This document shows, piece by piece, positions 30,001 through 36,000 of a stretch of 64,000 bases of DNA. The position numbers were made by a program. The DNA is from Escherichia coli O157:H7 (GTDB lineage Bacteria; Pseudomonadota; Gammaproteobacteria; Enterobacterales; Enterobacteriaceae), in assembly GCF_013167455.1 (NCBI RefSeq), contig NZ_CP038328.1; one strand, given 5' to 3'. Each line of letters starts with the position of its first letter. Positions within the stretch are counted from its first letter, which is position 1.

Positions 30001-33000
30001 GCTGTTGTTGACCGCCCGATAGTTGCCCAGGTTTACGATCGCCAAAACCGCTTAATCCAACACTATCGAGATAATGCAGCGTCCGTTCAGTGGCTTCTTT
30101 TTTACTGAACTGACCATTAAGCACCAGTGGGAAATAAACGTTATCGAAAACATTTAATACCGGCATAAGGTTAAAAAACTGAAAAATAAAACCCAAATGT
30201 TTTCCACGAATCACAGCCAACTGCTCTTCTGGCAGTTGGTTCAGTAATTTATTTAAAAATATCACCGTTCCGCTGGTCGGTTTATCAATACCCGAGAGAA
30301 TATTCAACAGAGTACTTTTACCACTGCCTGACGGCCCACACAGTGCGAGAAATTCGCCTTTATTGATATCAAGATTAATGCTTTTAAGCGCATCAACCTT
30401 TCCTGCCCCAGCGCCATAACACTTATAAATATTGCTAAGCGAAATAGCGGGCAACGATTTAATAGTAGATTGCATACGACTGTCGTTATCCTTCAAGGTA
30501 TTCAAGGTCAAAGTAGTGATAACCAAACTGTTTATCGGCAATGACCGTACGCATTTTTCCACCGGGCTGAATATGACGGGTTAAATAATCCATACTCAAC
30601 GCGGGCGTCAGACAACCGCTTTCACCGTAATGGGCCACCAGGTCGATAACGCCAGCAGCAGGCCGGGACGGCATTTGTTGCCGTTCGCTGAAGGCCATGA
30701 CATCAATATCCGTAGCATGCTGTGGCGCAGTGCCGGAATGATATTCCCCGCATTGCAGCCTGATGGCGCTCTCACGCTGGCTGAGAATAAAACAACCCAC
30801 TCGTTCAACAGATAAATTCACCTCATCAGCACGACGGGGAAATAAACGCTTAGGCGGTTTACCCACATCTTCTTCAGAGAATACCAGCACCGGAATTGCC
30901 CGATAGGCAGCACAAATCACCACGTTATCGAATACATCCCAGGCGAGATAATCCTGCGCCATACGCAGCGCCTGAACGAATGCCTGTTTTTCGCCGCGAA
31001 TCTTGCAAGTCGGTTCCGTTATCGAAAACTTCTTAAGTAAATTCTTGGGAAGCGTATCAATAGTGGCGATATGCAGCGCACTGGAAATTTTTTCAAACGA
31101 ACCGGATTCGCCCCAGGAATCGGCATAAATAAATGCCGTGCGCGATTTCATTAACTTCATGCGTTCTTTAGTCGGCATTTGTTGTAATGCAGAATCGGTC
31201 ACCTGCTCCATCGCCTCAAGGTAAGGCATATATTGTGGATTACGGATCCGTTCTGGTGCATAAATATCGTTCTCCACGCCAAAGCGCTTCAGTCCCCAGC
31301 CATTAGCACGGGTGCCGTATAATCCCCTTTCGTACATATGTGCTTCCCAGGCGTTGAGCCAGGTCGGCTGATAAAAATAAAAAATGTCGTCCGGTTCCGT
31401 AAGCGCCCAGGAAGACAGGTAGATACTCTTTTCCGTCATTTCGCGCGCCCCGCTTGCATATTTGTCATGACAACGCCAATAACTGAACCATCGACACCCA
31501 CACCAACCTTCAGCAAATGGCGTTTGCTATGGTTTGTCACGCTGCCGTCCGTAAGTACCAGCGAAGCCATGCTGTCGATAATGACGTCGTTGCCAACAGG
31601 TGCGATCAGTTGATGATGCGTCAACGAATGGTGGCCAATGATCAGATCGACAACACCAGATCCGGTTGCGGTATAGCCGATCTGCCCTTTATAGGCGAGA
31701 ACGGGGATCTGTCGCTCCCCTGCGAACATGGCGATGGCTTTGGCCTCCGCGTTATCGCTCACTGCCGAACCGTTGCCGTGTGGAAGAATGGCTGCAAGAT
31801 CATCCAGCGCAATTTCAGCCTGCTTCATCGCGGCCTGCATGACCTTGTGCACGTTAGTGCTAAGCCAGGAGGCATCGTTGCTGCGGCCCGCGCTGATTTG
31901 GGTGTAAGTCGTTTGCACCCTTACGCCCTCACTTTGTTGACGCGCCCGGCGGTGATGAGCGCTTTCCAGTAGGAGCGCGCTAAAACCTTCTGCGAACGCC
32001 ACACCTTTACTGTTTTCACCAAACGGCTGCACTTGTTCGCTGTCCAGCATCGATTGCGTTTCCAGGAACCAGATGTCCTGGGTTTTAATTTTCGAACAGT
32101 TCAGCACAATCGCGAGATCAATCCCGCCCTGCTCAATGCCCTGCGTCGCCAGATGCACCGCAGTCAGTGACGAGTTACTGGTGCAGTTCATGTTAGGCGG
32201 CAAATACTGCAAGCGATATTTGCGCGCAAGATGGCTTGAAATCGTGTCCTGCGACATCTTTGAGGCATGCAGATTTGTGATGGATTGCGTTAAGTTGATA
32301 TCTTCTACATCGTTGTAATTATAGAAAGATTTGTAATCCAGCCCGTCGATACGCGGCCCAATACCGGTCAGATAAACGCGAACGTTGCGCCCGGCCAGGC
32401 AATGCTTATCCAGCATTGCCTGTTCCAGGGCTTCGTCGATCAACTGAGACAGCAGGTCCAATGCGCTATCGTCCACCTGTTTCAACGTCGCCACTGACGG
32501 ATTACCCTTAAACCCGCATTTAATGGCTTCCTCGTTGGAGGTAAACCAGGGTGTACGCGCAACGCGTTTCCCCTGTTTCAGATTGTCAATTAACTGCGAA
32601 CAGTCTTCGGCATACGGCATCCACACGCTGTAACCCGAAATAATAGCGGCATTGTCCACAGTCTTATCCCTTAATGACGAACGCGTAGTAGTTGCCGCCT
32701 TCCGTTGCGCCAACAAGCAGGACATGGTTCAGCGCAAGTTTCATCGACTGGCGTACAAAATTCACACGCTCATCAAAGAATTCCACCGTATTTGGAATCG
32801 CAGGTACTGCCTGCTTCTTAATGCAGTCAGTAATCACGGCGAGGTTAAGCAAACCAGCGGCAGAGGCGACAAAACCAAAGCAAGCGTTATAGTTCACTAC
32901 CGGCACCGCCGGGTTTTGCGCGGCGAAGGTGTTGTAAATCGCGTCAATTTCGATACGAGAATGGTCATCGCTACCGTTGCTGGTACCACATACCAAATCA

Positions 33001-36000
33001 ATATCGCCAGCAGAGATGCCCGCATGCGTAAGGGCGCGTTCAATGGCCAGCGCCATCGACGCGGATTTTTCTTCCAACAATGAGGCGTCGAAGTAGGTAT
33101 TGCTGCATGACTTGCCGTAGCCCACCACTTCCGCGAGAACCTCAGCGCCACGCGCCACAGCCAACTGCGGATCTTCCAGCAGCAGCATGCAAGCCCCTTC
33201 GCCCGGAACATAACCTTGCGGATCTTTACCGTAAATCTGATAGTCGCTCGCCTCAGCCGTCATGTGGATCTTTTGTGTCACCGCATCCATATACAGCGAC
33301 ATCGACGGGAAGTACTCATCCGCGCCGCCAACCAATACCTGCGGTTGCAGGTTCTGCCGGACGATTTCATAACCGTAGGTCAGCGCGCCCAGCGCCGAGT
33401 TTTCCCCTGTCGCAAGCGTAGTGGTATACCCTTTGATCCCTTCAGAGATCCCGCAGAACGTTGGGATCGCATTCATCAGCGAGCCAGGAAATTCCGATGT
33501 ACGTACTTTGCGTGGATCGGGTTTCAGACTTTGCAGATATTTGTAGGTGGTTTCCTGCGGGCCGCGGGACATCCCCATGATCATGCCCAACTCATCGCCG
33601 TCGCGTTTGATTTTACGCTTCGCCTGTTCCAGCGCTTCGGTGAGTGCGATCAGGGCAAACGTGCCGCCACGGGTCGCTTTACGCTGATCGAAACGACGCA
33701 GGTGTTTACGCGGCTCCAGCCCGGAAACCTGGAACGTTTTAAAGTTGCTTTCCGTTTCCGGAAGCGTAGCTTCGCTGAAGCTGTACTCTTCATCAAACAG
33801 CTCGGCAAACTGGTTTGATTCATCCAGCACGGCCAGCAGCTCTTTGGCTTCTTCCAGTGTATCGTCCGGGAAGGTTACGCTACCCAGTTCAACGTGGTGG
33901 TCCTGCGCCCAGATGTTTTCCAGAACCTGGTTGAGCGTGTGGCCTATTGCGGATACTGCACCGACGCCCGAGATAGCCACACGCTTCGAATCATAGGTAC
34001 TGACCGGAATGGACGCGGGCTCCATGCTCAGGATCATGCAGCAGTTGTTGCCGCCGAAGGCATAGTTATTCTTCATGAAGATGTTCACTTTGCGATCGCG
34101 AAACTCATTCGGCACATAGTCCAGATCGCAATTCGGGCGTGCATGGCTGAAATTCAGCGTCGGCAGTACGCGGTTATCCGGAAGCGTTGCCAGACAGGCA
34201 ATCAGTTCCACAATCCCCGCTGCGCCAATGTTGTGGCCAAAGTAAGATTTGGTGGAGCTCACCAGCAGTTTATCGTGGTTAGCGAAGACCTTTTTCATTG
34301 CCAGCGTTTCAATACGGTCATTGGCTTCGGTACCCGTACCGTGCGCGTTGACGTAATCGATTTGCTCCGGGGTTACGCCCGCATTTGCCATTGCCTTGTT
34401 CATGACCTGCACCGCTCCGCTGGCACGCGGATCTGGCCCGGTTTCATGGAAAGCATCGCAGGAAGTGGCGTAAGAGAGGATCTCACCATAAATGGTCGCC
34501 CCGCGTGCTACGGCGTGCTCATACTCTTCCAGCACGATAGCGCCAGCGCCTTCACCAATCGACATACCGGACTGACCCGAGAACGGCGTACAAGTGTCTG
34601 GATGCATGACATTCAGTGCGTAGAATCCGGCAAAGGTCGGCAGATAGATGGGCTCAGTGCCCACTGCCAGCATGGTTTTGCTTTTACCATTCTGGATGTA
34701 GTCAAAGGCCATCCCCACGGCGTTCGGGCTGGCGGTACACGCGGTCGCCACCAGTTCAACCCCACCCTGTAAGCCCAGCAGCGTTGAAACGCTGGAACAA
34801 CAGGATGAGAATGCGCCGGAAAAGAGTGCTTTACGCAGCGAGAAATCTTCCATGCGCTGTTCGAACAGCGGCAAAAATGCCTCTGTTCCCGCGGACGAAA
34901 CACCGACGATCATGCCTGTTTCTTTGAGGGTGTCACGGCTATCCATCAGGCCGGCCTGACTCAGCGCATCTTTACCCACTTTGTAGGCCCAGAGCGCTGC
35001 GTTATCCAGTGAATCGATAACATCTTCGTTCAGATCGGAGTATTCAATGTCATGCAACACTTCTGCCGCACGCGCATTTTCAAACCATTTTGCAAAGCGT
35101 TCGCTATCCTTAACGCCATTTTTTTTATTTAATAATGCTTCCCGGAAATCCTGAATATTTTCCGCCAGTGAGGACAAAATCCCCAGCCCGGTAATAACAA
35201 CTCTTTTCCTGTTCGTTTTCATGAATAATACCTGGCAATCCCGCCAATTGGGGTTAATTTAAGCCGCGTAAGCTATAGTCACGCGGCGATATTCATTACG
35301 CTGCGCTTTTATTTTTTGACGCGTCGATATAACTGTGCTCAGTTGGGCTAACCAACATGCTCAGGTTATAAATAAACGGCATACATTTTGATTGCGCCGG
35401 AATAATTCCGTGAGCAGTTTGAATTTCGTAGCCGCTGATGTCAGACCAGGCGTAATCCTTTTCCAGCAGGGTCAGGGCAATGAAACGCTGCAACGCTGGG
35501 GAAAAGAGTGCCTTCACGACATAGCCCACGTCTTGACCTTCCACCAGCACGCGATCGCCAGCCTCAATGCCTTCGCATTCTTCCTGTGCGATCATGCCGA
35601 TGAGTTTATTACCGGTATACTCCTGGGATAGCTCTGTCACCGCGTCCTTGCCAATAAAATCATCTTTGTCGTACTGCACCGCCCACTGCATCTGCAACTG
35701 AACCGGATTCACCGCCTGACCTTCCCAGAGGCTGGCATCCCAGCACGGATTTTCGAGGCGTACGATTTTTTGATAATCCAGGCCGCCGGTCTGCATCAGG
35801 TATTTCTCGCCAACGGTTAACAGTTTTTCCCACTGCTCCGCCAGTTTCGCCTGCTCACCGATGGTCATGTACGCATACTCACCGTGTTTACCACAGCGGA
35901 AGAGCAGCAGATCCTCCTCGGTATTCATGTATTCGTAGTAAGGCAGGCCAATCACGTCAAAGCCATGAATTTCAGACATGATCTCCCAGGAGTATGGGCC

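Follow-up and report, generated by a model that had tools for sequence, protein, structure and literature searches.

A single-chain ketosynthase didomain with one erased catalytic centre in a candidate lipid operon of Escherichia coli O157:H7

Introduction

What can a bacterium build with a condensing enzyme that carries two ketosynthase (KS) folds in one chain, one of them stripped of its catalytic residues? The question is raised by a 64,000-nucleotide stretch of Escherichia coli O157:H7 (NCBI RefSeq assembly GCF_013167455.1, contig NZ_CP038328.1), referred to here as the window, in which a gene at positions 32664-35222, located in O-island 47 (OI-47), encodes such a protein of 852 amino acids (aa). 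The operon to which this gene belongs was reportedly called a "polyketide or fatty-acid biosynthesis system" in the original O157:H7 genome paper of 2001, and the searchable literature on OI-47 covers only the regulator GrvA and the effect that deletion of the whole island has on type III secretion. A previous reading of the window, made from the sequence alone, had proposed that the protein is a KS fused to a chain-length factor (CLF).

The analysis reported here leads us to consider it probable that the protein of 852 aa forms a pseudo-heterodimer within one chain, has its sole active site in the N-terminal KS and serves as the iterative condensing enzyme of a dissociated pathway. We favor this reading because the catalytic triad is intact in the N-terminal half and erased in the C-terminal half, with the same pattern across 109 fused representatives; because the C-half is constrained yet always more diverged; because a confident structural model best matches the PfaC didomain over both halves; because the operon, tightly packed and recurring elsewhere, holds genes for a holo-acyl carrier protein synthase (AcpS), a ketoreductase (KR), a dehydratase (DH), an acyl carrier protein (ACP), FabD and a Lol-like system; and because the nearest solved relative of the N-half comes from a two-chain KS entry, with an anammox heterodimer as precedent. 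The core of the sequence-only reading, a KS joined to a dead KS-fold partner within an ACP-dependent iterative pathway, is supported.

One chain with two ketosynthase folds, one of them erased

The gene is a single ATG-to-stop open reading frame (ORF) of 852 codons on the minus strand, the strand being a correction to the sequence-only reading, and RefSeq annotates the same interval as one coding sequence (CDS; WP_000856330.1, 'beta-ketoacyl-[ACP] synthase family protein'), so that the KS-KS didomain had been rightly recognized as one protein. The Pfam families ketoacyl-synt and Ketoacyl-synt_C are each found twice, at residues 6-358 (E 7e-30 and 1.5e-35) and again at residues 413-811 (E 2e-16 and 3e-9), which indicates two complete KS folds. 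The protein can accordingly be divided as follows.

34023-35222, minus strand: KS half of the didomain (aa 1-400), read as the active condensing domain (Pfam 6-358; Cys162, His294, Lys325, His330)
33990-34022, minus strand: linker of ~11 residues between the two KS folds (Pfam gap from 358 to 413; secondary structure of the model)
32664-33989, minus strand: CLF-like half (aa 412-852), a KS fold with its catalytic set erased (Pfam 413-811; FabF alignment; column statistics)

In the structural model the linker is flanked by the last strand of the N-half (392-399) and the first strand of the C-half (415-424), and the CLF-like half carries an acidic insertion at about aa 440-515. The N-half has the full complement of KS motifs that had been claimed for it, namely VATACTAS with Cys162, NAHGTGT with His294 and FGHNIG with His330, in addition to Lys325; it exceeds the cut-off of the fabF-type NCBIfam subfamily NF005589 (435 versus 387 bits), and its best solved sequence relative is 9s5h_B (E 3.9e-78), from an entry that holds a two-chain KS. 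This entry is probably the anammox amxFabF2/amxFabFmut heterodimer.

The C-half presents the opposite picture, and the claim that it keeps the thiolase fold without the active Cys holds. When it is aligned to Streptococcus pneumoniae FabF, the position of the nucleophilic Cys is taken by Glu607 (in the context T-G-E-N-S), that of His303 by Thr747, that of Lys335 by Asn779 and that of His340 by Phe784. A shifted catalytic Cys was looked for in the column statistics, and no conserved replacement nucleophile was found in the C-half, there being no Cys column that is kept family-wide. Two Cys residues, Cys590 and Cys745, are invariant in 31 close orthologues; neither occupies the nucleophile position (Cys745 lies two residues ahead of the former His303), and in the wider fused family the corresponding columns hold V/A and Y/V/F, respectively. 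The old Cys position is itself free to vary, being E in 19 of the 31 orthologues, V in five, I in three, Q in two, and A and Y in one each.

The CLFs of type II polyketide synthases (PKSs) carry Gln in place of the active-site Cys. The comparison with CLFs drawn in the sequence-only reading therefore stands for the missing Cys and for a CLF-like role, but not for the residue found there (Glu rather than Gln, and variable among orthologues), nor for the loss of both His and the Lys, nor for the closer relationship to FabF. The C-half scores 1e-20 against FabF versus 1.2e-13 against the actinorhodin CLF and is only 24% identical to the N-half of the same protein. A specific relationship to the actinorhodin CLF is ruled out by the higher FabF score, and these scores suggest that the C-half lost its triad independently; judged by sequence, the C-half is CLF-like in role and lies outside the actinorhodin CLF lineage.

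The AlphaFold model of the didomain is very confident (predicted local distance difference test score, pLDDT, 94.6; predicted template modelling score, pTM, 0.95), and its best structural match over both halves is 6RIW, the PfaC KS-CLF didomain, with a TM score of 0.78 over 946 columns at 17% identity; the two halves are predicted to pack as a pseudo-dimer. Because of this match, the covalent KS-CLF must be regarded as an already known design, and it is the free-standing form within a dissociated pathway that is the uncharacterised part.

Conservation and spread of the fusion

A region of 5.1 kb around the didomain matches many finished E. coli O157:H7 chromosomes at 100% identity; among 5,426 complete E. 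coli genomes it is found in 382, in 304 of them with at least 99% identity. Homologues of about 852 aa, with 56-89% identity, occur in Kosakonia, Enterobacter, Klebsiella aerogenes, Serratia, Proteus, Providencia, Pantoea, Aeromonas, Acinetobacter and Neisseria. In all orthologues the C-half has diverged further than the N-half (in Proteus, 47% versus 67% identity), and it is still constrained, with 47-86% identity among orthologues. It is also observed that 78 E. coli genomes hold a copy of the KS region at 95-99% identity, and that one of the 382 matches lies on a plasmid and not on the chromosome.

That the fusion might be an artefact of sequencing, assembly or annotation, or a decaying pseudogene, can for practical purposes be dismissed: we found no support for it beyond a few shorter entries (P0038 with 712 aa, P0120 with 470 aa), which are consistent with contig ends, and it is refuted by the identity of the region in many independently finished genomes, by orthologues from many genera which, at 56-89% identity, agree with it in length and architecture, by 109 fused cluster representatives and by the confidence of the structural model. 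The concern that two separate genes had been wrongly merged, or that a frame error had joined them, is removed by the finished genomes, the RefSeq CDS and the orthologues.

To what extent is such a fusion unusual? The C-half alone was searched against 1.84 billion cluster representatives and the best 150 matches, each standing for a 50%-identity cluster, were examined: in 109 of these 150 nearest clusters the representative is a didomain protein of 700-900 aa that contains two KS stretches. The Cys/His/Lys/His set of the N-half is kept in ~102 of 110 fused representatives, and the old Cys position of the C-half is hypervariable among them (G, A, P, E, V, F, Q, S, Y and others), with Gln in 6 of 110 as compared with 2 of the 31 orthologues. 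Among the matches listed, KS-CLF fusions are seen in Proteobacteria, Firmicutes, Actinobacteria, Verrucomicrobia and Spirochaetes; a scan of genome contigs, whose listed matches are mostly ordinary FabF loci, is no census of the fusion. These counts, together with the PfaC precedent, do not support the earlier assumption that a covalent fusion is out of the ordinary: the design is known already and is not rare.

The operon around the didomain

The didomain gene lies within a run of 17 tightly packed minus-strand genes, from TpsA to YcdU, with gaps of -17 to 88 nt; the part from acpS to ycdU comprises 15 genes, spaced at -17 to 73 nt. In the order of the minus strand, the genes are the following.

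40214-44026, minus strand: TpsA, filamentous-hemagglutinin-type, 1270 aa
38506-40125, minus strand: TpsB, ShlB/FhaC-type, 539 aa
38122-38490, minus strand: AcpS, dedicated holo-ACP synthase (TIGR00516, 79.8 bits, above the cut-off of 59.8)
37347-38108, minus strand: FabG-like short-chain dehydrogenase/reductase KR, at the RefSeq start (RefSeq CDS; NCBIfam NF009466, 225 bits, above the cut-off of 222)
36795-37343, minus strand: FabZ-family 3-hydroxyacyl-ACP DH (NCBIfam FabZ, E 7e-21, below cut-off)
36492-36773, minus strand: dedicated ACP, 93 aa (NCBIfam phosphopantetheine-binding and ACP models; RefSeq)
35296-36456, minus strand: GcvT-like protein of the aminomethyltransferase family (NCBIfam GcvT models, below cut-off)
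32664-35222, minus strand: KS-CLF didomain
31436-32659, minus strand: stand-alone KS with Ser for Cys ("Ser-KS"), 407 aa (RefSeq WP_000367826.1; alignment to the KS of 6-deoxyerythronolide B synthase, DEBS; 121 orthologues)
30486-31439, minus strand: X317, cryptic KS/CLF-like fold of 317 aa without nucleophile (structure search)
29768-30475, minus strand: LolD-like ATPase (NCBIfam LolD, 1e-67)
29128-29784, minus strand: secreted protein of 218 aa
27817-29127, minus strand: LolC/E-like FtsX permease (NCBIfam lolCE, 2e-26)
27020-27808, minus strand: LolA-like protein (RefSeq 'outer membrane lipoprotein-sorting protein')
25635-27023, minus strand: 462-aa protein with a signal peptide (no Pfam match)
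24680-25621, minus strand: FabD-like malonyl-CoA:ACP transacylase (TIGR00128, E 1.8e-52; RefSeq 'ACP S-malonyltransferase')
23697-24683, minus strand: YcdU, polytopic membrane protein and last gene of the operon, overlapping the fabD-like gene by 4 nt (RefSeq)

Orthologues of the FabZ-like DH match Pfam FabA and, weakly, an ApeI-like family, and within the export block (25635-30475, minus strand) an orthologue matches the Pfam family TP_0789-like. YcdU has no significant Pfam family (one sub-threshold match, E 0.003). Profile searches detected no enoyl reductase (ER), thioesterase, cyclase, adenylating enzyme or acyltransferase among the operon proteins. At the upstream end TpsB stops 15 nt ahead of acpS; TpsA and TpsB also stand directly upstream in Enterobacter cloacae (locus L008 of the loci retrieved from other genomes, which are numbered with an L throughout) and are absent at L002, L003 and L009.

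A second, split ketosynthase pair

The didomain is followed by what the sequence-only reading had called a further stand-alone KS. A KS-type protein is indeed present, but it is not a canonical one. Its GTG start, preceded by AAGGGA, is placed 4 nt past the didomain stop, and in the alignment to the DEBS KS it has Ser161 at the Cys position and Tyr329 for the second His, while His294 and Lys324 are kept. The pattern is practically fixed among the 121 orthologues (Ser161 in 120, His294 in 121, Lys324 in 120, Tyr329 in 121), and a Cys two residues upstream of Ser161 is dispensable, being present in 107 of 121. The decarboxylating KS (KS-DC) of 3-hydroxy-3-methylglutaryl (HMG)-synthase beta-branching cassettes also shows a Cys-to-Ser exchange. 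Ser-KS resembles it in the Ser at the nucleophile position and differs from it in the Tyr for the second His and in the lack of any HMG synthase or ECH gene in the operon.

The stop of Ser-KS is overlapped by 4 nt by the gene for X317, a fourth KS-fold protein that had gone unnoticed, as had the conserved link of the didomain to the GcvT-like gene. The fold of X317 is recognized by structure search only: Pfam and NCBIfam sequence profiles gave nothing, and an hhalign comparison with the didomain alignment fell short of significance, at a probability of 2.9%. X317 is likely the partner of Ser-KS. The operon thus encodes four KS folds in two pairs, the one fused (active/dead), the other split (Ser-KS/dead). 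In a small sample of loci, those with a thioesterase (L006, L010) are without Ser-KS/X317, and L002, L003, L008 and L009 show the reverse.

The GcvT-like gene and related loci

The GcvT-like protein falls well short of the curated GcvT models (135.6 versus a cut-off of 300 bits; 97.6 versus 235.85 bits), and it keeps the equivalent of the catalytic Asp96 of the Thermotoga maritima T-protein together with several folate-site residues. Since it scores below cut-off, lies between ACP and KS-CLF and keeps the catalytic Asp, we regard it, on the evidence of its sequence and context, as a family member that is not the housekeeping T-protein. Its gene is flanked by those for ACP and KS-CLF in 10 loci, and no linkage to gcvH or gcvP was found. 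The order ACP-GcvT-KSCLF recurs at L002, L003, L006-L010, L012 and L025, with hosts that include Paenibacillus arenosi (L010), a metagenome-assembled genome of Verrucomicrobia (L012) and Nonomuraea (L025), and a rough neighbor-joining tree places the GcvT-linked fusions on a number of deep branches. We found no description of a recurring ACP, GcvT-like and KS-CLF cassette in the searchable literature.

The whole operon from AcpS to FabD recurs in E. cloacae L008, where it is accompanied by TpsAB and YcdU and is 85% identical, and at L002 and L009, where TpsAB are missing and the copies are ~40-53% identical; the Lol-like export block is kept in all three. Paenibacillus arenosi has a compact FabD-KR-DH-thioesterase-ACP-GcvT-KSCLF cluster between housekeeping genes, and because the fusion is the only KS there, such a protein can be the sole condensing enzyme of its cluster. 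Other arrangements are also met: in Clostridia, Acholeplasmatales and Treponema, a large clade lacks GcvT and shows the order ACP-KSCLF-KR-DH, and anammox bacteria (L032, L038, L046) and several deltaproteobacterial loci have split KS pairs.

Some further layouts deserve mention in their own right. In Clostridium fungisolvens (L005, 3727-17016) a KS-CLF fusion, ACP, KR, DH and an FtsX/ABC exporter occur together, the fusion adjoining a radical S-adenosylmethionine (SAM) enzyme, four ORFs of 50-59 aa and a BtrH_N-family protein, a layout that suggests a lipidated ribosomal peptide. Two different KS-CLF fusions per cluster are present at L003 (4405-6894 and 10001-12550) and L007 (309-2774 and 8382-10868), and at the latter two flavoenzymes resembling amine oxidases or phytoene desaturases directly follow the second fusion.

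The island and its absence from K-12

E. coli K-12 (L004, NC_000913.3 1090000-1099000) matches the window at 23491-25023 and 56764-61009, and the insertion sequence IS3D stands exactly in place of 25024-56763, a stretch of ~31.7 kb that equals the size of the published O-island 47 (z1528-z1556). What K-12 retains of the operon's fabD-like gene is its 3' end, the pseudogene ymdE, with ycdU still behind it. Because both remain at the IS3D site, K-12 is a deletion derivative, which lost the operon by an IS3-associated deletion.

Just beyond ycdU there is a 75-bp element (23491-23565) that matches three tandemly spaced K-12 copies between ycdU and serX (7143-7579 of the K-12 locus, spacing 181 bp). 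Past this element the match to K-12 ends and a P4-type integrase gene (22128-23330) follows, which adjoins the region leading in K-12 to the tRNA-Ser gene serX; ARAGORN found no tRNA genes in the window (1-64000). Between the integrase and an IS1 pseudogene, in a patch of 32% GC content, lies a 605-aa ORF on the plus strand (20124-21941), hypothetical in RefSeq and with no NCBIfam or PADLOC match.

Discussion

The arrangement described above has several partial counterparts. The PfaC KS-CLF didomain (6RIW; Santin et al. 2020, cited in PMC12895367) performs the final elongations in the synthesis of polyunsaturated fatty acids (PMC12895367). The 852-aa protein shares with it the succession of an active KS and a dead CLF along a single chain, a predicted identical relative arrangement of the halves and, as we suppose, iterative elongation in a pathway to unsaturated chains; however, PfaC runs on into DH domains and belongs to a megasynthase in which tandem ACPs and an ER subunit are also present, whereas the present protein ends after the CLF and is surrounded by discrete single-domain enzymes, none of them an ER.

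The anammox amxFabF2/amxFabFmut heterodimer has one functional tunnel and decarboxylates malonyl-ACP, its dead partner being without Gln and having Val or Thr at that position (bioRxiv 10.64898/2026.05.19.726425). This pair and the ishigamide KS/CLF Iga11/Iga12 (6kxd) resemble the operon of enterohaemorrhagic E. coli (EHEC) in joining a FabF-like KS to a triad-less FabF-like partner alongside discrete KR, DH and ACP, but both are made of two separate polypeptides, and the EHEC operon has no radical-SAM genes. With the actinorhodin KS-alpha/CLF (1TQY) the didomain shares a KS with its triad and, as we propose, a single active site whose pocket the partner helps to form; unlike in that system, where KS and CLF are separate, there is here no hallmark Gln and there are no cyclases or aromatases, but KR and DH instead.

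Aryl-polyene clusters (ApeO/ApeC with ApeR; PMC8358021, PMC8253772) are likewise type II-like and Gram-negative. In both, one more KS stands beside the KS/CLF pair, KR and DH are discrete enzymes, an ER is missing and export to the envelope is LolA-like, and the weak ApeI-like Pfam match of the orthologous DH adds to the likeness. They differ in that KS and CLF are separate and in that the EHEC operon has an ABC/FtsX exporter and the GcvT-like gene. Profile searches of the latter operon found no aryl-starter activation, thioesterase, acyltransferase (LPLAT), glycosyltransferase or MMPL exporter of the aryl-polyene kind. PigJ/RedX of prodiginine biosynthesis are proteins of ~760 aa with two KS folds, only one of which is competent. 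The N-half of the didomain does match positions 498-727 of the 759-position PigJ profile (NCBIfam NF053555), but this is the C-terminal half of PigJ, so that the order is reversed, the score is 97 bits against a cut-off of 900, and the pathway is unrelated.

Taken as a working model, a self-contained pathway of type II fatty-acid or polyketide-like character may be envisaged, in which the dedicated AcpS would activate the dedicated ACP, the FabD paralogue would load malonate, the KS-CLF would extend the chain iteratively, and the FabG-like KR and FabZ-like DH would process each beta-keto group. In the KS-CLF itself, the C-terminal fold, its catalytic set erased, would stand in for the partner subunit of an ordinary KS dimer, and its faster-evolving residues, including the old Cys position, would probably help to shape an acyl pocket extending into the dimer interface. 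The C-half may in this way provide the built-in length control of the sequence-only reading, of which its faster divergence is the one indirect sign. The chain so produced is probably unsaturated, given that no ER is encoded. The Ser-KS/X317 split pair may have an accessory job in priming or off-loading, the GcvT-like folate enzyme would probably perform a one-carbon step on an ACP-bound intermediate, and the LolCDE/LolA-like system would presumably carry the lipid to the cell envelope. The missing ER and the Lol-like export genes suggest an unsaturated lipid as the product, destined for export.

A further-reaching and more doubtful proposal, which we put forward only tentatively, is that the ACP/GcvT-like/KS-CLF cassette represents a new module, in which the folate enzyme would add or remove a one-carbon unit on a phosphopantetheine-tethered intermediate, and that EHEC and related Enterobacterales would use two KS/dead-partner pairs, the fused one and the split one, to make an uncharacterised envelope lipid. 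A role on the phosphopantetheine arm is proposed because relatives of the GcvT-like protein work on the swinging lipoyl arm; no one-carbon folate chemistry of this kind is described for fatty acid synthases or PKSs in the literature searched.

Caution is advised by a number of points that weigh against our reading of the didomain and its pathway. In the searchable literature we found no function or product for the operon or its proteins, nor any GcvT-like protein or aminomethyltransferase linked to a ketosynthase, so that the role proposed for the GcvT-like protein has no precedent there. The intramolecular packing of the two halves is itself a prediction. The housekeeping FabI could act in trans, and the missing ER gene is therefore no proof of an unsaturated product. 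Finally, the invariance of Cys590 and Cys745 in close orthologues leaves room for an unconventional role of the C-half.

These points bear on the alternatives to be weighed. If the two Cys residues were catalytic, the protein would be a tandem KS-KS in which both halves are active condensing enzymes, the C-half using Cys745, so close to the former His303, or Cys590; we consider this highly improbable, since neither residue is at the nucleophile position or kept in the wider fused family, and since the C-half is without the His/His/Lys set and evolves faster in every orthologue. The CLFs of type II PKSs and the KSQ domains of loading modules carry out a priming decarboxylation of malonyl-ACP. 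A C-half of this KSQ/CLF-Gln type would convert malonyl-ACP to acetyl-ACP, in keeping with those proteins and with the few instances of Gln at the old Cys position; the E. coli protein, however, has Glu there, its orthologues have E, V, I, Q, A or Y, Thr, Phe and Asn stand in place of the two His and the Lys that decarboxylation requires, and the anammox heterodimer, with Val or Thr in the dead partner, achieves the decarboxylation by means of its one intact site, all of which makes a priming decarboxylase a poor, though slightly less remote, candidate.

A different kind of objection concerns the product and not the enzyme. The operon might be a dedicated source of common acyl chains, for the most part saturated, with FabI acting in trans, for acylating or activating the upstream hemagglutinin/hemolysin-like protein of the two-partner secretion (TPS) system or some other envelope component. 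The 15-nt gap between TpsB and acpS, which makes co-transcription probable, the same linkage in E. cloacae L008 and the lack of ER, thioesterase and acyltransferase genes in the operon are in line with such a supply. We nonetheless hold it to be unlikely: TpsA and TpsB are missing at L002, L003 and L009, of which L002 and L009 have kept the Lol-like block; the linkage shared with Enterobacter, whose copy is 85% identical, may reflect one mobile unit; and the LolA-like carriers and FtsX permeases favor export of the lipid itself. The single-chain pseudo-heterodimer as condensing enzyme of a dissociated, iterative pathway thus continues to be the reading that we prefer.

These findings do not only turn an orphan lipid operon of a major pathogen into a concrete, testable pathway, for whose expression K-12 offers a natural deletion background, but also draw attention to the free-standing KS-CLF fusions as a large uncharacterised family that extends across phyla and includes many gut Firmicutes. 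Covalent KS-CLF pairs sidestep the difficulty of producing soluble KS/CLF heterodimers, and they could therefore be useful for engineering.

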